Below, piece by piece: positions 5,733 through 64,000 of a stretch of 64,000 nucleotides of DNA (position 1 is its first letter; the number at the start of each line of letters is the position of its first letter). A program made the translations under genes and the position numbers. The notes under the pieces were generated by a model. That model did not search any database. It saw only the letters and a program-made list of their open reading frames with translations, and was not told the DNA's origin. Origin of the DNA: a phage; sequence record PZ296772.1. One strand, 5' to 3'.

Positions 5733-6271
5733 CGATTGAAAAAGAAATTGAAGGACTAATTCATAAAACTAATAAAGACCTTTTAAACGAGAATGCTAAT
5801 AAAGATTCTCGTGTTTTTCCAACTCAACGGGACCTTATGGCTGGTATTGTGTCTAAACACATTGCCAAAAATATGGTCCCGTCTTTTATTATGAAAGCGC
5901 ATGAAAGCGGAATTATCCATTTCCACGATATTGATTATTCCCCTGCTCTTCCATTTACTAATTGCTGTTTAGTAGATTTAAAAGGAATGCTTGAGAACGG
6001 ATTTAAGCTCGGTAATGCACAGATTGAAACTCCTAAATCAATCGGCGTTGCTACTGCAATTATGGCGCAAATTACTGCACAGGTTGCTTCCCACCAATAT
6101 GGCGGAACGACTTTTGCGAATGTAGATAAAGTACTTTCTCCTTATGTTAAACGCACCTATGCAAAACATATTGAGGATGCAGAAAAATGGCAAATCGCTG
6201 ATGCGTTGAATTATGCTCAATCTAAAACAGAAAAAGATGTATATGACGCGTTTCAGGCGTATGAGTTAATT
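5729..6271 (+). CDS. nrdD: anaerobic ribonucleotide reductase NrdD, exon 1 (3' boundary approximate)
   Basis: 181-aa N-terminal part; reading frame resumes about 1 kb downstream in another frame. Confidence 0.8.
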
Positions 6272-6477
6272 TAATTCAGGCTCATGTAAAACCGGTCTAA
6301 ACGGGGAACCTCTCTAGTAGACAATCCCGTGCTAAATGTTCTTTTGAACTAAATGCCTAACGACTAACCGTGATGAATGTAGCGGTGTAGAATAGAAGCT
6401 AATGCTATTCGAAACGGCCGGCATCGAAAGATGAAGATATAGTCTAATCTGCATGGCGACATGCAGCAGTCATCTTG

Positions 6478-6485
6478 TATAAATA
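6478..6485 (+). promoter_or_regulatory. T4-type late promoter TATAAATA inside intron
   Basis: exact tataaata 30 bp upstream of endonuclease ORF, preceded by ctgcat/atgcag hairpin. Confidence 0.55.
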
Positions 6486-6514
6486 AGATTATCTTATGAA
6501 TACGAGGTGAAACA

Positions 6515-7285
6515 ATGAAATGGATAAAAAGACGTTGTACTAAAATAAAAGATAAAGACGCATTTACATACTTAGTTAAGTTTTCTAATGGCGACATTTA
6601 TATCGGTTATAAAAAATTTAGAACAATTAAAAACAAGCCCACAAACTGGAAAACTTACACAACGTCATCTAAGTATATAAATGAACGCTTAAAAACTGAT
6701 ACACCTACTAAATGGATAATTTTAAAAACATTTGATAGTTATAAAGATGCATTAAAACATGAAGAAGAGGTCATACGTAAATATTTTTATAGCAAAAAAT
6801 GTTTAAATAAATCCATAGGCGGTAAAAAGTTTTATAAGCATCCGGATACTGAAGAACATATTCAAAAATTAAGAGATGCTCATAAGGGTAAAGTGTTATC
6901 CGAATCTCATAAAAACAATATAAAATCTTCTGTGGCTGAATATTATGCTAAAAACAGAAGATCTAAGGAACATGTGCAAAATAATATCAATAGTCGAAAA
7001 AGTAAAAAACAAGTATCGATAAAGCTTAAAAATAAAACTTTTAGAAGTTTTAAAAAAGCAGCGGAATATTTAAATTGCACTGAAAGTGAAGTCGAAACTC
7101 ATCCTCTTGTTTTGAGTATTAAGACTACTATTCATAAAGTTCCTGAATATGTGGTTGTTGACGGTATTAAGTATACGTCTTATATAGAAGCAGCTAAAGC
7201 GCTAAATTTTCATCCTAGCACTATAAAAGAACGTTGCATATCTATGGACTATCCAAATTTTGTTGTTTCATATAAACGGGCATGA
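6515..7285 (+). CDS. GIY-YIG homing endonuclease, I-TevII-like
   Basis: 256 aa; N-terminal FTYLVKF...DIYIGYKK GIY-YIG motif; lysine-rich DNA-binding C-terminus; lies wholly inside the intron. Confidence 0.8.
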   Translation: MKWIKRRCTKIKDKDAFTYLVKFSNGDIYIGYKKFRTIKNKPTNWKTYTTSSKYINERLKTDTPTKWIILKTFDSYKDALKHEEEVIRKYFYSKKCLNKSIGGKKFYKHPDTEEHIQKLRDAHKGKVLSESHKNNIKSSVAEYYAKNRRSKEHVQNNINSRKSKKQVSIKLKNKTFRSFKKAAEYLNCTESEVETHPLVLSIKTTIHKVPEYVVVDGIKYTSYIEAAKALNFHPSTIKERCISMDYPNFVVSYKRA

Positions 7286-38060: not shown

Positions 38061-38582
38061 ATGGCACACTTTAACGAATGTTCACAACTTATTTCTGGTG
38101 TTGATAAAGCAGAAGAAGCTTATTTTAATGCTCTGATTCACGAAGATAAAGACCCACTGCAGGTAATGCTTGATATGCAGAAATCTTTACAGGTTCGTTT
38201 GGCAAATGATAAGCCTGAACATAACAAACATCCTGATGAATTGGCTACTGCCGGTGATGTTGTTGATTGGCTGCGTAATCAGAAAGATTATATTGATGAT
38301 GAATTCCGTGAACTGCTGACTTCACTTGGCGGTATGAGCAATGGTGAAAAAGCCGCTAGCTCTGTATGGAAGCCGTGGAAAGCACAACATGCTGAATATC
38401 GTAATCGTCGTATCGATGAACTGTCTCCTGAAGACCAGCTTGAAATTAAATTCGAGATGATTGACATCCTCCACTTTGTTCTGAATATGTTCCAAGGTCT
38501 GGGTCTTTCTGCTGAAGAAATCTTTAAACTTTACTACTTGAAAAACCAACACAACTTTGAACGCCAGGATAACGGTTACTAA
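38061..38582 (+). CDS. 56: dCTPase-dUTPase gp56
   Basis: MAHFNEC...DPLQVMLDMQ...LTSLGGMSNGEKA matches T4 gp56 from memory. Confidence 0.9.
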   Translation: MAHFNECSQLISGVDKAEEAYFNALIHEDKDPLQVMLDMQKSLQVRLANDKPEHNKHPDELATAGDVVDWLRNQKDYIDDEFRELLTSLGGMSNGEKAASSVWKPWKAQHAEYRNRRIDELSPEDQLEIKFEMIDILHFVLNMFQGLGLSAEEIFKLYYLKNQHNFERQDNGY

Positions 38583-38588
38583 TTAAGT

Positions 38589-38596
38589 TATAAATA
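38589..38596 (+). promoter_or_regulatory. T4-type late promoter TATAAATA for soc
   Basis: exact tataaata about 32 bp upstream of soc ATG. Confidence 0.65.
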
Positions 38597-38627
38597 CACC
38601 TGTAATTAAACAACAAAGGAGTTAATT

Positions 38628-38864
38628 ATGGGTGGTTACGTTAATATCAAAACCTTTACGCATCCTGCCGGTGAAGGCAAAGAAGTTAAAGGTATGGAAG
38701 TTTCTGTACCGTTTGAGATTTATTCAAACGAACATCGGATTGCAGATTCTCATTACCAAATCTTTCCATCAGAAAAGGCAGCATATTCTACTGTAGTTTC
38801 TGATGCGGCTGATTGGAAAACTAAGAATGCCGCAATGTTTACCCCTACACCAGTAAGTGGTTAA
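38628..38864 (+). CDS. soc: small outer capsid protein Soc
   Basis: GYVNIKTF...HYQIFPSEKAAYSTV matches T4 Soc from memory. Confidence 0.88.
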   Translation: MGGYVNIKTFTHPAGEGKEVKGMEVSVPFEIYSNEHRIADSHYQIFPSEKAAYSTVVSDAADWKTKNAAMFTPTPVSG

Positions 38865-38873
38865 ATAATTTAA

Positions 38874-38898
38874 GGAATCCTTCGGGATTCCTTTTTTG
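38874..38898 (+). terminator. rho-independent terminator
   Basis: ggaatcc-ttcg-ggattcc hairpin plus ttttttg. Confidence 0.75.
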
Positions 38899-38963
38899 TT
38901 TCTACAGTTTACAACCACTAAAAACTGTGTTAAGATATTTTTACTTACTCAAGAGGAGAACAA

Positions 38964-39192
38964 TATGTTAAATCGTTGGATTAAACCTAATAACACATTA
39001 GGTGCTTTGATTGCTCAAGAAGTTTCATTGAAATACGGCCTTGGATATTATGATGATGTAGTCGTACACTCGTTCATGATGGATGGTGAAAACGTCAAAT
39101 TTAATGCCGAAATCCGTTGGGATGACGGTGGTGTTCGTTTTGTTCGAGGAACAATTAATGCTTACGATGCTGAAGAAGTTGTTTGCTGTTAA
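38964..39192 (+). CDS. hypothetical protein
   Basis: 76 aa; gaggag RBS. Confidence 0.5.
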
Positions 39193-39205
39193 ACCAGGCG
39201 AAGGT

Positions 39206-39406
39206 ATGATGCCGATTCCTGATACACACGAAAAAAGTTGGGAATACATTGGTGATGGAATGATGGAAGAAGTTGTTCGTCCAAAAACAAAACAGGTTAA
39301 TGCTTCAAGCTCTTCCGATTATAATCATTCATACGTATCGTCTTGGCCTGGTGATTCTGGGTCAAGTTATTCTGATTGTGGTTCAAGCTCAGGGAGCTGC
39401 GAATGA
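39206..39406 (+). CDS. hypothetical Ser-rich protein
   Basis: 66 aa; gaagg RBS. Confidence 0.4.
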   Translation: MMPIPDTHEKSWEYIGDGMMEEVVRPKTKQVNASSSSDYNHSYVSSWPGDSGSSYSDCGSSSGSCE

Positions 39407-39582
39407 ACAGAATAGTAAAATGGTTTAAAAGCTTGAATGATGGTGTCGGTCCGGAAGATTGGCTGGATGTTCTTGAAGAGAATATGGCTAAAGAATTCCA
39501 GAAACACGAAGAGAAGCTCGTCGAAGATGAAGGCGAACGTATTGTAAAACTTTATATGGGTGAACCATCGAGGAAATTATAA
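39402..39582 (+). CDS. hypothetical protein
   Basis: 59 aa; ATGA overlap. Confidence 0.4.
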
Positions 39583-40046
39583 TGGATGCTATGTTATTTA
39601 AAATGTATTTGCTTGAAGCCAAGTCGTTTAAACATATACCAGTAGAAGATAAGACTCCACTAGAAATAGCTATTCTCATTAACAAAAGTCTAAATAATCC
39701 GCAATATATCGTAGAAGAATTCTGCAAATTGCAGATTCCTAAAGGTTACAAAATTCGTGTAGAGCGAGTTGGAGCTATTACTCATTCTAAAAATTCTCCG
39801 TTTAGTCTTGAAGAAGGCATAAAGGACTTAGGTTATGAATCTACGGAAAATGCAGTTTATGTGAATCCTGAAAAGCGTTTAGACTTGTTTGAAAAGCGAG
39901 ACCATAAGTATTTTGCCAAAAAATACTTTATTACATCATTAGCAGATTTAATCCATTTGCAACGAGCTATTTGGAAATTTTTTAAGACAAAAGGTGTAGT
40001 ACTAGAAACATTCTCTGAACCTGCTAGTTTTTATCTCGGTGAATAA
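39582..40046 (+). CDS. hypothetical protein
   Basis: 154-aa ORF. Confidence 0.5.
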   Translation: MDAMLFKMYLLEAKSFKHIPVEDKTPLEIAILINKSLNNPQYIVEEFCKLQIPKGYKIRVERVGAITHSKNSPFSLEEGIKDLGYESTENAVYVNPEKRLDLFEKRDHKYFAKKYFITSLADLIHLQRAIWKFFKTKGVVLETFSEPASFYLGE

Positions 40047-40047
40047 T

Positions 40048-40227
40048 ATGGACTTGATGAGTATGTTTGATGAGCCTGAAGTTGAGGCTCCTAAAGTGCA
40101 TCGTAGTGAACTTGTTGATGAACTAGATAGTATTATACAACGACACGGCTTTAGTTTACCTGTTGAAGCCCTGAAAGACCTTGCCTCTTATTATGACGAC
40201 CCTCCACCATGGAGTCCTTGGAAATGA
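40048..40227 (+). CDS. hypothetical acidic protein
   Basis: 59 aa. Confidence 0.4.
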   Translation: MDLMSMFDEPEVEAPKVHRSELVDELDSIIQRHGFSLPVEALKDLASYYDDPPPWSPWK

Positions 40228-40388
40228 AAGAGAAATTTAAAGAGAAATTCTTACTAGAAATCAAGGAAAAAGACTTTGAGACATGGTATCGAATGGTGAA
40301 AGGGTTGACATTGCTTTTTAAAGCATCCTTATTCATGTTAGAACAACCTGGTCCTGATGGACCTTTAGTAGGAAAGCTTAAAAAGTAG
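40224..40388 (+). CDS. hypothetical small protein (below ORF-track cutoff)
   Basis: 54 aa MKEKFKEKFLLEIKEKDFETWYRMVKGL... Confidence 0.3.
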   Translation: MKEKFKEKFLLEIKEKDFETWYRMVKGLTLLFKASLFMLEQPGPDGPLVGKLKK

Positions 40389-40443
40389 TTTACATTCCCT
40401 CCTCTCGTGTTATGATAGGCTTATCTTTAAATGGAGGTCTATC

Positions 40444-41025
40444 ATGACATGTCAATCTGAACTTCAAGAACATGAATACCTAACAAATCTGATTGATAGC
40501 AAATTCACCCGCCAAGAACAAAACATTCTCTGGGCCTGCACCGATTCTAAGGAAGACCCGGATTTCCACTATGAATTAGACCATCTTGTTCGTAAGCATA
40601 TGACTTCTACAGTGCCAGTAGAACTCTACCGTGGTGTAACTCCAGAAGAAGTAGAACGTCTTTCCCTTCTTTCTGTGGGATGCCATTGGTCTCCTGGACG
40701 AGTAACATCGTTCACAACTGATTTCAGTACAGCTCGTCAATTCTCCGGGAGATGGGAATATCAGACGTACACTATTCTTAGTCTCAGGAATGCTCCATTC
40801 ATTTTTGATTACTACCAAAACATGGTTAACATTGTACTTGCCGGAAAGAACCCTAAGCATGTTATGGAAGAAACGCGTGTTGACGTCCTAGATATGATTG
40901 AATCTGAACAAGAATACATGGTCTCAGGTATCTCTAGATTTGAGATTGTGGAAATTGAAGAGTTAGAGTATGACCCTTTGCCTCGAGTATACAAAATCAT
41001 TCACTTAAAGATGTTGAATTTTTAG
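40444..41025 (+). CDS. ADP-ribosyltransferase, ModA/ModB family (R-S-EXE)
   Basis: 193 aa; YRG arginine, VTSFTTDFS STS-like, ESEQEY EXE motif; paralogue of the next gene. Confidence 0.6.
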   Translation: MTCQSELQEHEYLTNLIDSKFTRQEQNILWACTDSKEDPDFHYELDHLVRKHMTSTVPVELYRGVTPEEVERLSLLSVGCHWSPGRVTSFTTDFSTARQFSGRWEYQTYTILSLRNAPFIFDYYQNMVNIVLAGKNPKHVMEETRVDVLDMIESEQEYMVSGISRFEIVEIEELEYDPLPRVYKIIHLKMLNF

Positions 41026-41082
41026 TGTACAAACTCTACCTACGATGATACTATACTTTTATCAACCAGAGGAGAAACCTAA

Positions 41083-41691
41083 ATGTTTATGCCGTATAAC
41101 GAGTGTGAAATTGAAGAAATGGTTCGTCGTGCTCAAAACCCCGAATATCAAGATGTATTGCAGTACGAAATTGATAGTCAATTCAGCGACATTGAACAAA
41201 GTGTACTGTGGCAGTGTATGGAAAACAAGCCAGACTGTATTCAACAGGAGTTAAGTTCAATCGTTCGTAGAAATTGGACGTCTTCTGTTCCTGAGACAAT
41301 GTATCGTGGAATCTCTAAGAAAACTATGGCCACACTCGATGATAAAGGCATTGGTAGTATTATTAAATTTGACAGAGTAATGAGCTTTAGTCCAGTGTTT
41401 GGTGTAGCACGTAACTTCGCTTCATATAATTTTTATGGAACATTTAATATGTTCTGCGTCAAAGATGCACCATTTGCTTTCAACTTCCGTGAACATATGC
41501 TTAATATGATTCTGGCTGCACCATCTTGTGAGTTCAATGGAGCTTTCCCTGAAGCGACAAGACGGTCTAATGCTAGACTTATATCTGACGAATGTGAATT
41601 TATGCTCCCTATAGGGACTACACTGCGTGTAGATTCTATTATTCAAGATGGACGTTATACAATCTGGAATCTGTCTATTGTTGGTTACTGA
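41083..41691 (+). CDS. ADP-ribosyltransferase, ModA/ModB family (R-S-EXE)
   Basis: 202 aa; MYRG, VMSFSPVFG, SDECEF motifs. Confidence 0.6.
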   Translation: MFMPYNECEIEEMVRRAQNPEYQDVLQYEIDSQFSDIEQSVLWQCMENKPDCIQQELSSIVRRNWTSSVPETMYRGISKKTMATLDDKGIGSIIKFDRVMSFSPVFGVARNFASYNFYGTFNMFCVKDAPFAFNFREHMLNMILAAPSCEFNGAFPEATRRSNARLISDECEFMLPIGTTLRVDSIIQDGRYTIWNLSIVGY

Positions 41692-41843
41692 CTGGATTGG
41701 AATAACCGGATGGAACTCAGAACCATTATAACACATAAAAAATTAAAGCATTTTACGAAAAAAGTGTGTACACTACCTGAGGGCATGATATTATAGACCT
41801 ATCAGCTAAATGACCTAACGTCCGTAAGACAGAGGAAAATATT

Positions 41844-42590
41844 ATGTTATCAAATAATAAAATTAACAAAATCAATCGTCGTCTTGACCACACCAGAGCT
41901 TCTGCGAAGAGACGCTCTAAGGATTTTAACTTAGATTTTAATTACCTTAAAAACATTCTTGATCAAAAGGTCTGCGCTTACTCAGGTGAATCTTTCAATA
42001 ACTCTGTTGAAGGTGAGAAATTATCCTTAGAACGTTTTAATAATGATATAGGCTACATTAAAGGTAATGTTATCCCAGTTAAGAAAAAATATAACACGGC
42101 TCGTTCTGATTTAACATTAGAAGAACTTATTGAGAAACGTGATGCCATTGCAAGACGTATTGCTAATCCTTCTGCCCGTAAAGTAGAGAAACTTAATCTT
42201 GACGAGAAGAAATGGGCCCAAATTAAAAAGGTTTATGGTACTATTTTAAAAATCCGAGCAAAACGTGAAAACCGTGTTAAGCATATGGCGAACATGATGA
42301 AAAATCAACCTTTATCTAACGAATCTAAACTTAGAATTGTTGCTTTGAAAGCACGCATTAATGGCTCACATCAAGCAGAAGGCCATGAACTTACTAAACT
42401 CAACGTTCTTCTTAAAGGCTCTGACTGGAAAACTAAAACTAAATTAACTGACGCCGAATCGCTTTTCGATACATATGATAAAGTTATCCAAGGTCTGCAA
42501 CGTTTTGAAAAGATCGGTTTCATTGGTAAATTAAAATTGAAACGTGGCCTACCACTTAGCGCATCATTATTCCAACTGATTAAAGGTTAA
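41844..42590 (+). CDS. hypothetical basic protein (Srd position; degenerate HNH-like N-terminus possible)
   Basis: 248 aa; RLDHTRA...CAYSGESF...NNDIGYIKGNV segment; lies between the ART pair and dda. Confidence 0.45.
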   Translation: MLSNNKINKINRRLDHTRASAKRRSKDFNLDFNYLKNILDQKVCAYSGESFNNSVEGEKLSLERFNNDIGYIKGNVIPVKKKYNTARSDLTLEELIEKRDAIARRIANPSARKVEKLNLDEKKWAQIKKVYGTILKIRAKRENRVKHMANMMKNQPLSNESKLRIVALKARINGSHQAEGHELTKLNVLLKGSDWKTKTKLTDAESLFDTYDKVIQGLQRFEKIGFIGKLKLKRGLPLSASLFQLIKG

Positions 42591-42592
42591 TT

Positions 42593-42904
42593 ATGGTTTA
42601 TGTATATGCAATAGTTTATCGAGATATGGAAGGATTTACTGTCCCGGTTCCACTTGATGAGCATCGTCCTGCAGTATTTTTTAGAAAGGATATTGCAGAT
42701 AAAGTTTTCGATACTTTGAAAACACAGTATAAAACAGATTTAAAAATGGGAGTTCTAAGAATGGTCGAAACTCCGCGTAAGTTCTGGTTTAATAAGCTTG
42801 AAATGAAACACGTTAAACTAGATGCGGAGACGCAAAAATTGTATCAACGAATCCTGGACACAGGCCGTATTGTTAGTATTCCAATTGCAGGGACTTTACG
42901 ATGA
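42593..42904 (+). CDS. hypothetical protein
   Basis: 103-aa ORF coupled to dda. Confidence 0.5.
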   Translation: MVYVYAIVYRDMEGFTVPVPLDEHRPAVFFRKDIADKVFDTLKTQYKTDLKMGVLRMVETPRKFWFNKLEMKHVKLDAETQKLYQRILDTGRIVSIPIAGTLR

Positions 42905-44214
42905 CATTTGATGATTTGACTGAAGGCCAGAAAAACGCCTTCAACGTTGTTATGGAAGCTATTAAAGAAAAGAAACATCATGTAACTATTAATGGACCTG
43001 CTGGTACAGGTAAAACAACCCTTACTAGATTCATCGTTGAAGCCCTTATTTCTTCTGGAGAATCAGGTATTATTTTAGCAGCCCCTACACATGCTGCTAA
43101 AAAGGTTCTAAGCAAACTTGCGGGTCAAGAAGCATCGACTATTCATAGCATTCTTAAAATCAACCCAACTACATACGAAGAAAACGTATTATTTGAACAG
43201 AAAAAGGTTCCAGACTTAGCCTTGTGTCGTGTACTGTTATTTGATGAAGCGTCAATGTGCGACCGTTCTCTGTTTAAAATAATGTTAGCTAGTATCCCTA
43301 AATGGTGTACAGTAATTGGAATCGGCGACCGATGCCAGATTCGTCCGGTAGACCCAGGCGAATCAACTGCGTATCTAAGTCCTTTCTTCACTCACAAAGA
43401 CTTCGTGCAATGCAACCTTACAGAAGTTAAACGTAGCAATGCACCAATTATTGATGTTGCGACTGATATTCGTAACGGCAAATGGATTTACGATAAAGTA
43501 GTTGATGGGCACGGTGTTCACGGATATACAGACCTTAAATCGTATATGATGAACTATTTTAACGTCGTTAAAACTCCTGAAGACCTTTTCGAAAATCGAA
43601 TGATGGCATTCACAAATAAGTCGGTGGACAAGTTAAATTCAATTATTCGCCGAAAACTTCTTGAAACAGAAAAACCATTTATTAAAGACGAAGTCATTGT
43701 TCTACAAGAGCCGTTTACTAAGACATATAAGCTAGATGGTAAAAATATGACCGAAATGCTTTTCAATAACGGTCAATTCGTTCGTATTCGAGATGCTGTA
43801 GAAACGTCTACATTCGTTAAAGCACGTGGTGTTTCAGGCGAATATATGATACGATACTGGAATCTTACAGTAGAAACGTATGGGGATGATGAAGAATACA
43901 TCCGCGAAGATATAAAGGTTATTTCTTCTGAAGAAGAGCTTTATAAATTCAATTTGTTTTTGGCTAAGACCGCAGAAACATACAAATTTTGGAATAAAGG
44001 TGGTAAAGCTCCATGGAGCGAATTCTGGGATGCTAAACGTATGTTCACTAAGGTGAAGGCACTACCAGTATCAACCTTCCATAAGGCCCAGGGTATGTCT
44101 GTTGACACGGCCTTTGTTTATACACCGTGTATCCATTACGCCGATTCAGAATTAGCTAAACAGTTATTGTATGTCGGCACAACTCGTGGTCGGTTTGACG
44201 TCCATTTTATTTGA
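42901..44214 (+). CDS. dda: SF1 DNA helicase Dda
   Basis: Walker A GPAGTGKTT; MTFDDLTEGQKNAFN matches T4 Dda from memory. Confidence 0.92.
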   Translation: MTFDDLTEGQKNAFNVVMEAIKEKKHHVTINGPAGTGKTTLTRFIVEALISSGESGIILAAPTHAAKKVLSKLAGQEASTIHSILKINPTTYEENVLFEQKKVPDLALCRVLLFDEASMCDRSLFKIMLASIPKWCTVIGIGDRCQIRPVDPGESTAYLSPFFTHKDFVQCNLTEVKRSNAPIIDVATDIRNGKWIYDKVVDGHGVHGYTDLKSYMMNYFNVVKTPEDLFENRMMAFTNKSVDKLNSIIRRKLLETEKPFIKDEVIVLQEPFTKTYKLDGKNMTEMLFNNGQFVRIRDAVETSTFVKARGVSGEYMIRYWNLTVETYGDDEEYIREDIKVISSEEELYKFNLFLAKTAETYKFWNKGGKAPWSEFWDAKRMFTKVKALPVSTFHKAQGMSVDTAFVYTPCIHYADSELAKQLLYVGTTRGRFDVHFI

Positions 44215-61580: not shown

Positions 61581-61853
61581 ATGAATAAAGACATTGAAAT
61601 CGTACGTGAAATTATTACTATTGCTTCTATTTTGATTAAATTCTCTAGGGAAGATATTGTTGAAGACCGAGCAAATTTCATCGGATTCTTGAATGAGATT
61701 GGAATTAAAAAAGATGGTCGGCAGCTAAATCAGAATTCGTTCAGAAAACTAATTACAAATTTAACTGCCGAAGAAAAGAAAACACTGATTAGTGAATTCA
61801 ATGAAGGTTTTGAAAATATTTATCGCCATTTGACGATGTATTCTAACAACTAA
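61581..61853 (+). CDS. asiA: anti-sigma70 factor AsiA
   Basis: VREIITIASILIKFSREDIVEDRANFIGFLNEIG...NQNSFRKL matches T4 AsiA from memory; 90 aa. Confidence 0.92.
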   Translation: MNKDIEIVREIITIASILIKFSREDIVEDRANFIGFLNEIGIKKDGRQLNQNSFRKLITNLTAEEKKTLISEFNEGFENIYRHLTMYSNN

Positions 61854-62513
61854 TTATTTAGCCCGCCCTAATATCCTTGCTGCTTGGTTGCATATTGCAG
61901 CCAAGCGTTCTTCATTTAACACATCCGACCCCTTATACCAATACATAGAAACAGTTCCCGCATATATGTTATCCAAATTGAAGTAAGGACAACTATACAT
62001 ATACGCCAGTTCCGGAGTTTTTGATTTGGTAGGTAAGAAAGCAAAATCTGTTTTAGAAGTAAAGTGAAGTCCACTTAAATGGACCGAATATTCTGCTGTC
62101 GTTTTATCAACAGGAAATCCTCCCATAGATTTTTCAGTTACTGTGCTAGGTAACTTACCTTCATACGCAATAAGGTCGACGAAATAATTTAGATTTTTAG
62201 GTCTGAAAGAATACACCGAACTAAAATCCGCCCTTGATGTGACGTGGACTATTTGTAGTTGTTCTAAAGCCGCAGATTCAAATCGTGTATTTCTTTCTTT
62301 TTGAATTACTTCTGTGTAAGTATCATATTTCGACCTCACGTAATAATCCATAAAAATATTCCCTTTGTACCATATTAGTGCCATTAGGAACAAAAGAACT
62401 ACAACAGCAACTCTTGAAATAAGAATATTTCCAGAGGCGTTATCTTTGAAAATGCGGTCTAGCAACCCAAATAAAATATCACTAGGCGAAAATGATACTT
62501 TTGGTGCTGCCAT
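61854..62513 (-). CDS. t: holin T
   Basis: MAAPKVSFSPSDILFGLLDRIFKDNA...SCPYFNLDNIYAGT matches T4 holin from memory; SD ggaggt before ATG 62513. Confidence 0.9.
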   Translation of the reverse strand: MAAPKVSFSPSDILFGLLDRIFKDNASGNILISRVAVVVLLFLMALIWYKGNIFMDYYVRSKYDTYTEVIQKERNTRFESAALEQLQIVHVTSRADFSSVYSFRPKNLNYFVDLIAYEGKLPSTVTEKSMGGFPVDKTTAEYSVHLSGLHFTSKTDFAFLPTKSKTPELAYMYSCPYFNLDNIYAGTVSMYWYKGSDVLNEERLAAICNQAARILGRAK

Positions 62514-62531
62514 ATTACCTCCCATTTATCA

Positions 62532-62539
62532 ATATTTAT
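62532..62539 (-). promoter_or_regulatory. T4-type late promoter TATAAATA for t
   Basis: tataaata on - strand about 20 bp upstream of t start. Confidence 0.6.
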
Positions 62540-62558
62540 AATTGAGAGGTATTATCGT

Positions 62559-63338
62559 TTAAATCCAGGAGCCGTAGATTGTGCCTGTAGCACCCCATGA
62601 CGGTGAACTTCCGAATACTGCTCTGCCAGGAGCACCACCGCCAGATCTAGATAAGTGATTACCCCATCCATCTCCACCCCGAGCGCCAGCATCACCGCCA
62701 TTGCCTCCGCCGAACTGGGAAGTGTAACCAGCACCGCCCGGGGCGTCATAACTAGCATTACCACCCGGCCAATTAACGCCACCTCCGCCGATGCCAAATG
62801 GTCTACCACCACCGCCACCTGCTGTAGCATTTGGAGCCCAGCTATTCTGTAATGACACTGCACCGCCACCGCCACCGCCTGATGCAATAACGCCATAGTT
62901 CCAAATACGAAGTCTTCCGCCGATATCATTTTGGATTACATCGCCGCCATTTGTGCCTGGGTTTCCGTTTACAGTGCCGTTACCACCTCGTCCCCACATA
63001 TGAACTCCACCATGAATATTCAAAGTAACATATTCATTCGGTGTATCGCCATACATAAAGAATAATGGAACATCTTTACTATATGATACTAAATTTCCGG
63101 TGATATTAAACACTATAGGAGCGCCGCCAGCTTCAAAGCAACGGTCACGGAACCATTGCCCGTTAAAGTTATGGTCTGCACCAAGTGTATGAATTATTTC
63201 TCTTGAACGGCCCGCGAATTGGGACATCCATGAAGGGTTTCCTAAACGAAGTTCCCTTGAAGCAGCCGTCATCCATCTTTGTCCCGTTTCAGCAACGGCT
63301 GAAGTCCCAATCCAACCAGGGATTCCTACTACTGCCAT
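62559..63338 (-). CDS. 38: long tail fibre adhesin gp38 (T2-type, glycine-rich)
   Basis: 259 aa with several poly-Gly blocks ([35 protein letters not shown]) separating variable segments. Confidence 0.8.
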
Positions 63339-63349
63339 ATAAACCTCCA

Positions 63350-63363
63350 GGGCCCGAAGGCCC
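63350..63363 (+). promoter_or_regulatory. GC-rich palindromic hairpin between 37 and 38; with the following T-run a possible + strand terminator
   Basis: gggcc-cgaa-ggccc then ttttattatttt on + strand. Confidence 0.45.
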
Positions 63364-63368
63364 TTTTA

Positions 63369-64000
63369 TTATTTTATCAATGATTTAATTAATGCTTTCA
63401 ATTCGGTAATTTCAGATTTCAATTCCTTGATTTCATCTGTATGCTCGTTTATTGCAGCTGTATTTAAACCAATAATACCGTTATAGTTCAAACGAAGCAG
63501 TCCGGTCTCTTTATCTTCAGAAACAAGTTCAGGTAATACTTCTTGAACTTCCTGAGCAATTAAACCTGCGGACGGTTTAACTTCGTCTGTAACAGAGTTT
63601 TTAAGCAGATAAGTATAACCGCCCAATAGTTTAGATTTCTCTTGAGCGTTCTTAATAAGCTTAATTTCCGACTTACAACGAATATCAGAACGAATATAAA
63701 CGTCGTTAACATCAATGTTATCACGAACATACATACCTGCATTACAGTGGAAGTTAACATCACCGAATGTCTGAGCTAAACCAGGTCTAAAACTAAACAC
63801 ACCTTGGCCGTTTGCATATGCGTTGAAAATACCGTCTGCTTCCCAAAGCAAACCGGTATCGTTATCTCCAAGTACAATACACGGCCCGCCCCATGCAGGG
63901 TCACCACCACCAGCTGATACTCTACTGCTCTTAAGTAAGCTTGGAGCATAAAAAGTACCGTTATGGTGAAATTCATAGATAGCTTGTGGGTCAGAACCAT
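63369..64000 (-). CDS. 37: long tail fibre distal subunit gp37, C-terminal part with intramolecular chaperone (S74-like) domain; continues beyond window
   Basis: frame stays open to the window edge; DIRCKSEIKLI...GLIAQEVQEVLPELV...ELKSEITELK resembles tail-fibre auto-processing chaperone domains. Confidence 0.75.
   Translation of the reverse strand, partial: GSDPQAIYEFHHNGTFYAPSLLKSSRVSAGGGDPAWGGPCIVLGDNDTGLLWEADGIFNAYANGQGVFSFRPGLAQTFGDVNFHCNAGMYVRDNIDVNDVYIRSDIRCKSEIKLIKNAQEKSKLLGGYTYLLKNSVTDEVKPSAGLIAQEVQEVLPELVSEDKETGLLRLNYNGIIGLNTAAINEHTDEIKELKSEITELKALIKSLIK

Follow-up and report, generated by a model that had tools for sequence, protein, structure and literature searches.

The two genes described here lie side by side on the plus strand of a phage DNA stretch of 64,000 nucleotides (sequence record PZ296772.1), the whole of which is referred to below as the window.

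40444..41025, plus strand: ORF1, 193 aa, predicted Mod-family ADP-ribosyltransferase, srd-distal, in the 'modB' position
41083..41691, plus strand: ORF2, 202 aa, predicted Mod-family ADP-ribosyltransferase, srd-proximal, in the 'modA' position

The interval singled out in the preliminary description spans exactly both genes, with the ATG of ORF1 at 40444 and the stop codon of ORF2 ending at 41691. Over 4.8 kb around the pair, the sequence shares 98.7% identity with vB_EcoM_JS09, an Escherichia phage of the genus Mosigvirus (Straboviridae, Tevenvirinae), and it also matches about 150 other RB69-type phages; judged by sequence similarity, the source is a Mosigvirus genome, that of an RB69/JS09-type T4-like coliphage. 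Identity to RB69 is 95.4% over 1,471 nt (40230-41700) spanning the pair. RB69 and JS09, members of the same genus, carry the same genes annotated as ADP-ribosylases, the ORF1 counterpart being named ModB and the ORF2 counterpart ModA (NP_861709 and NP_861708 in RB69, JS09_0162 and JS09_0163 in JS09). Lengths and neighbors are identical, with few amino acid substitutions; the RB69 record starts modA from the second ATG, which gives 603 nt against 609 nt here.

The gene order at the locus is mrh - modA.2 - RB69ORF020c - ORF1 - ORF2 - srd - dda.1 - dda - dexA. It agrees with that of T4 (mrh...modA.2 - modB - modA - srd - dda.1 - dda ... dexA) and places the pair among the early genes, with mrh/modA.2 on one side and srd-dda.1-dda-dexA on the other. 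The earlier placement of the genes at the ModA/ModB position upstream of dda holds; ORF2 and dda are separated by srd and dda.1. In T4, modB overlaps modA by 4 nt, whereas ORF1 and ORF2 are separated by 57 nt, with a weaker promoter-like sequence in the gap. An Rfam scan near the pair gave nothing significant (Rhino_CRE, E = 0.2), RNA folding of the ORF2-srd spacer revealed no structure signal (z-score 0.05), and no tRNA genes were found in the window.

Several features of the surroundings were recorded along the way. The modA.2 homologue (window positions 40039-40227) is named 'molybdenum ABC transporter, periplasmic molybdenum-binding protein' in several GenBank records, for example, in ESh27 (ON528737, CDS at positions 128-307 of locus L022), evidently owing to confusion with the name of the bacterial modA gene. 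In roughly its first 100-160 residues, the homologue of the Srd 'anti-sigma factor' next to ORF2 (41844-42590) also matches the PHROG families of HNH endonuclease and endonuclease VII as secondary hits (1e-18 to 8e-11), which suggests descent of the Srd family from an HNH-like nuclease fold. Near the end of the window (about 61850-64000), the coding strand changes from plus to minus at about 61854, the G+C content reaches 0.42 and GC skew is negative; the switch probably marks where the early genes give way to a block transcribed in the opposite direction.

Putative expression signals were located upstream of both genes:

40389..40416, plus strand: sigma-70 / T4-early-type promoter-like site upstream of ORF1 (TTTACA, 16 nt, TG-n-TATGAT)
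40433..40437, plus strand: Shine-Dalgarno sequence GGAGG, 6 nt before the ORF1 ATG, read from the sequence
41070..41074, plus strand: Shine-Dalgarno sequence AGGAG, 8 nt before the ORF2 ATG, read from the sequence

The promoter-like site matches 10 of the 12 hexamer positions, has the extended -10 TG and is the best in the region 38500-43000. Promoter-like sites in this region were not enriched (13 found versus 14.9 expected from shuffles), and therefore 40389..40416 is a suggestive consensus match only. Weaker promoter-like sequences precede ORF2 (below the scan threshold) and srd. By analogy with T4, ORF1 and ORF2 are probably made early, from early-type promoters.

ORF1 and ORF2 are 33% identical over 147 residues (BLASTP, 88 bits, E = 3e-27), a similarity far past chance co-occurrence of motifs, which bears out the initial view of them as adjacent paralogues that have diverged strongly. 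Both matched PHROG 832, 'RNA polymerase ADP-ribosylase' (8e-38 for ORF1 and 3e-37 for ORF2). T4 has two proteins of this family: ModB (NP_049636) modifies S1, L2, EF-Tu, and trigger factor by ADP-ribosylation and RNAylation, and ModA (NP_049635) ADP-ribosylates Arg265 of both RNA polymerase (RNAP) alpha subunits. Similarity to these proteins is significant and full-length. ModB is the best T4 match for both ORF1 (BLASTP, 38% identity, 92 bits, E = 6e-28) and ORF2 (31%, 105 bits, E = 3e-33), followed by ModA (26%, 42 bits, E = 8e-10 for ORF1; 30%, 73 bits, E = 9e-21 for ORF2). ModB resembles both ORFs in family, size, R-S-ExE motif, N-terminal helical region, and neighborhood, and differs by an insertion before the conserved Arg preceding ExE (8 residues relative to ORF1 and 5 relative to ORF2). 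T4 ModA belongs to the same family, has the same catalytic residues and is srd-proximal like ORF2, but its N-terminal region is strongly diverged (19% identity).

Every database homologue is assigned to PF26816 in precomputed Pfam annotation and bears the name ADP-ribosylase or NAD--protein ADP-ribosyltransferase. For ORF1 and ORF2 themselves, local scans of Pfam-A and NCBIfam yielded no family; the Pfam-A copy evidently did not include PF26816. A profile search of 1.84 billion representatives retrieved 132 clusters at E <= 1e-3, 17 of them at 1e-30 or better. Most have a size of about 160-230 aa, with a tail up to about 4,300 aa containing a similar ADP-ribosyltransferase (ART) module; judged by size, the very large proteins may be the polyvalent phage/plasmid proteins described earlier (PMC9503650).

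The catalytic residues are encoded at the following positions:

40630-40632, 40708-40710, 40906-40908, and 40912-40914, plus strand: predicted catalytic codons of ORF1 (R63, S89, E155, and E157)
41305-41307, 41383-41385, 41590-41592, and 41596-41598, plus strand: predicted catalytic codons of ORF2 (R75, S101, E170, and E172)

The motifs are Y62-R63-G64, S89-F90-T91, and E155-Q156-E157 in ORF1 and Y74-R75-G76, S101-F102-S103, and E170-C171-E172 in ORF2. An Arg (YRG), an S-x-S, and an E-x-E motif had been described in the order expected for ARTs; this order holds for both proteins, but the second motif of ORF1 is strictly S-x-T. In a four-way alignment, R63/G64/S89/E155/E157 of ORF1 and R75/G76/S101/E170/E172 of ORF2 are invariant and fall in the same columns as R73/G74/S99/E171/E173 of T4 ModB and R72/G73/S96/E163/E165 of T4 ModA. 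The R, G, S, and ExE positions were also invariant in an alignment of 35 homologues. Arg, Ser, and Glu-x-Glu of both ORFs are thereby aligned with experimentally essential residues of the T4 enzymes: T4 ModB R73A,G74A is inactive (PMC10468400), the ModA substitution E165A abolishes ADP-ribosylation (PMC11404850), and a preprint, citing Tiemann 2004, gives E173 of ModB as essential and R73 as binding NAD (bioRxiv 10.1101/2025.07.11.664405). A further signature, F-x3-E-x3-L-x2-C-x3-K, is N-terminal, helical and not part of the canonical R-S-ExE motif; it is invariant among ORF1 (residues 21-36, window positions 40504-40551), ORF2 (residues 34-49), T4 ModA, and T4 ModB, and its E, L, C, and K are also invariant in the 35 homologues.

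AlphaFold2 models built on the 35-sequence homologue alignment were confident for both ORF1 (pLDDT 88.7, pTM 0.84) and ORF2 (pLDDT 94.0, pTM 0.88). Each predicted structure is a single domain of about 200 aa with an ART fold and an N-terminal helical region. In each model, one beta strand bears the Arg, the next conserved strand bears the Ser and leads into a helix, and ExE sits at a strand entry, which is the canonical R-S-E ART arrangement. A Foldseek search of the PDB with the ORF1 model gave 87 matches at E <= 1e-3, and the best 50 matches listed were ADP-ribosyltransferases only; they included CDTa, Certhrax, iota Ia, C3, VIP2, Tre1, HopU1, XopAI, and SpvB. For the ORF2 model as well, the PDB matches listed were confined to ARTs. 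Among viral predicted structures (BFVD), the models matched phage Mod proteins, and the ORF2 model superposed over its full length (TM 0.85) on models of phage ModB and T4-type ModA. The R-S-E toxins and effectors Tre1, Vis, HopU1, C3, VIP2, iota Ia, CDTa, and Certhrax have the same predicted fold and motif arrangement, but they are secreted with delivery domains, whereas Mod proteins are early phage proteins, stand-alone and intracellular. Similarity to toxins and effectors at the sequence level is not significant, the best profile-to-PDB match being XopAI (E = 0.13). [quoted passage not shown]

Since the alignment with T4 ModA and ModB keeps all catalytic residues and the models show an ART fold, neither loss of these residues nor absence of the fold, the two outcomes named beforehand as counting against the proposal, was observed. 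The sequence matches and predicted structures support membership of ORF1 and ORF2 in the T4 ModA/ModB family, within the R-S-ExE clade of presumably arginine-specific ADP-ribosyltransferases. With a probability of about 0.9, we consider ORF1 and ORF2 to be the Mosigvirus counterparts of T4 modB and modA, encoding single-domain R-S-ExE arginine mono-ADP-ribosyltransferases with presumably T4-like targets.

Under the proposed mechanism, the pair, located in the pre-replicative gene block, would probably be transcribed from early-type promoters. The Arg of strand beta1 and the Ser of beta2 would hold NAD+, and the second ExE glutamate, located where the strand following the ARTT region begins, would activate the N-glycosidic bond. 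ADP-ribose could then be passed to arginine side chains of host proteins, or NAD-capped RNA could be transferred instead if the enzyme behaves like T4 ModB. From its position and weak catalytic-domain affinity, ORF2 would most probably act like ModA on Arg265 of RNAP alpha, and ORF1 would most probably act like ModB on translation factors, for example, S1, EF-Tu, and trigger factor. Because one-to-one orthology with T4 ModA and ModB is weakly supported, these target assignments, and with them the distinct host targets suggested in the preliminary description, are inferred by analogy with T4. The enzymatic activity and expression timing proposed for ORF1 and ORF2 likewise follow the T4 enzymes. 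No enzymatic or target report was found in the literature for ORF1, ORF2, or any Mosigvirus (RB69-type) Mod protein.

The correspondence of each copy to ModA or ModB was analyzed by neighbor joining (NJ) and segment-wise comparisons. The ORF1 and ORF2 clades received 100% and 97% bootstrap support, respectively. The ORF2 clade grouped with T4 ModA at 25%, and specific grouping of the ORF1 clade with T4 ModB received 0% in the NJ analysis. ORF1 and ORF2 as sisters resulting from a recent lineage-specific duplication were likewise rejected (0% NJ bootstrap). Single-copy 'core' Mods scored 143-174 bits against ORF1 and 123-143 bits against ORF2, and are closer to each of them than ORF1 is to ORF2; in segment-wise distances, ORF1 is nearest to these 'core' Mods. 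Given the 0% bootstrap and the greater closeness of single-copy 'core' Mods from other genera, at 162-174 bits, than of T4 ModB, at 92 bits, ORF1 is ModB-like by its best T4 hit and position without being a demonstrable 1:1 orthologue of T4 ModB. Isoelectric points (pI 4.5-5.9, all acidic) did not separate ModA-like from ModB-like proteins.

One could suppose that both proteins are ModB-like, with a broad range of targets and possibly RNAylating, that Mosigvirus has no functional ModA, and that the 'modA' label of ORF2 is a positional artefact. Overall, ORF2 is indeed nearer to T4 ModB than to T4 ModA (105 against 73 bits), and its N-terminus contains the exact T4 ModB motif EQSVLWQCME. Two Mod genes are present in the T4-type and RB69-type lineages and those of loci L003 and L018-L020, and many Straboviridae loci have one ModB/core-like Mod gene and no ModA-like gene (e.g., L005-L010, about 5850-6620). 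The deep branching order of Mod clades is also without resolution in the NJ tree. However, T4 ModA is merely a long branch, far from all Mods compared (17-82 bits), and in the catalytic and C-terminal part it is nearest to the ORF2 clade (Kimura distances of 1.26 and 1.42 in the two catalytic segments versus 1.54-2.40 for other groups). ORF2 and T4 ModA also have in common, and ModB lacks, the S-D-E-x-E motif before the catalytic Glu and an F-P...R-x-N stretch; the C-terminal Y-T-I of ORF2 is found in T4 ModA as well, and ORF2 is srd-proximal, as is modA in T4. We therefore regard the absence of a functional ModA as unlikely. The segment distances also raised the idea that ORF2 is a mosaic or recombinant, its N-terminus being ModB-like and its C-terminus ModA-like; such an origin is not claimed, because these distances fit unequal rates equally well.

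Since ORF2 scores higher against ModB and the bootstraps are weak, the names ModA and ModB depend chiefly on gene order. In loci L018-L020 (6013-7232), the srd-distal gene groups weakly with T4 ModA and the srd-proximal gene belongs to the ORF2 clade; gene order is therefore no reliable guide to ModA/ModB identity. The conventional assignment, in which ORF2 would act like ModA and ORF1 like ModB or the 'core' Mods, is our best guess by analogy.

Within Mosigvirus, purifying selection acts on both genes, the dN/dS ratio being 0.09-0.11 for ORF1 (versus RB69 and LF82-3) and 0.07-0.18 for ORF2 (versus five relatives). Coverage of the pair fell below 80% in about 22 of 154 Mosigvirus-type records. 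Three of the reduced-coverage records were read (phiE142, ESh27, and p000v); in all three, the loss was inside ORF1, and ORF2 was intact. In phiE142 (L017, 5782-6801) and ESh27 (L022, 301-1321), an in-frame deletion of 447 nt lies between two copies of a 9-nt direct repeat:

40454..40462, plus strand: upstream copy of AATCTGAAC, bounding the 447-nt deletion
40901..40909, plus strand: downstream copy of AATCTGAAC, codons E-S-E-Q in the ExE region, the junction in phiE142 and ESh27

The remnant of this deletion is 44 aa long, without the Arg and the Ser. A different ORF1 deletion, of 508 nt, was found in p000v (L021, 301-1263). By coverage pattern alone, phiC120 (70%, in two pieces) resembles phiE142 and ESh27, and PHB12 (66%) resembles p000v. 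The two deletion alleles in relatives indicate that ORF1 is an accessory gene lost at least twice. By analogy, this loss would fit what is seen in T4, where ModB is non-essential but matters for fitness: an inactive ModB mutant has a smaller burst and lyses its host later (PMC10468400).

A doubtful extension is that the pair is not a simple equivalent of ModA and ModB, with ORF2 directed at targets other than Arg265 of RNAP alpha and ORF1 being not a core ModB but a conditional, host-strain-specific takeover or counter-defense ART. Less probable still is that ORF1 is a dispensable, decaying paralogue with little or no function, so that ORF2 alone matters. The reduced-coverage records and the two alleles of internal ORF1 deletions next to an intact ORF2 are consistent with such decay, but ORF1, where present, has all catalytic residues intact, is under purifying selection and is preceded by a strong promoter-like site and a Shine-Dalgarno sequence of its own. 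Together with the T4 ModB mutant phenotype, this makes a conditionally useful accessory gene a better fit than a decaying one. Finally, chance co-occurrence of R, S, and ExE in unrelated small phage proteins lacking an ART fold, which would agree with the insignificant local Pfam-A, NCBIfam, and PDB sequence searches, is refuted by the PHROG 832 and T4 ModB matches, the motifs invariant in 35 homologues and the ART matches of the models.

The preferred reading, ORF1 and ORF2 as Mosigvirus counterparts of T4 modB and modA, concerns a pair that is already known: it is annotated as modB/modA in RB69 and well over a hundred Mosigvirus genomes, and, given the RB69 and JS09 annotations, is nothing new in kind. 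The T4 family has been characterized experimentally, so the pair counts for little as a discovery and has a modest use in practice. In RB69-type phages, ModA and ModB are unverified names based on position. Isolates already sequenced supply deletion alleles of ORF1, a naturally dispensable gene, and with them a simple comparative system for the role of a ModB-type ART, or of RNAylation, in infection.
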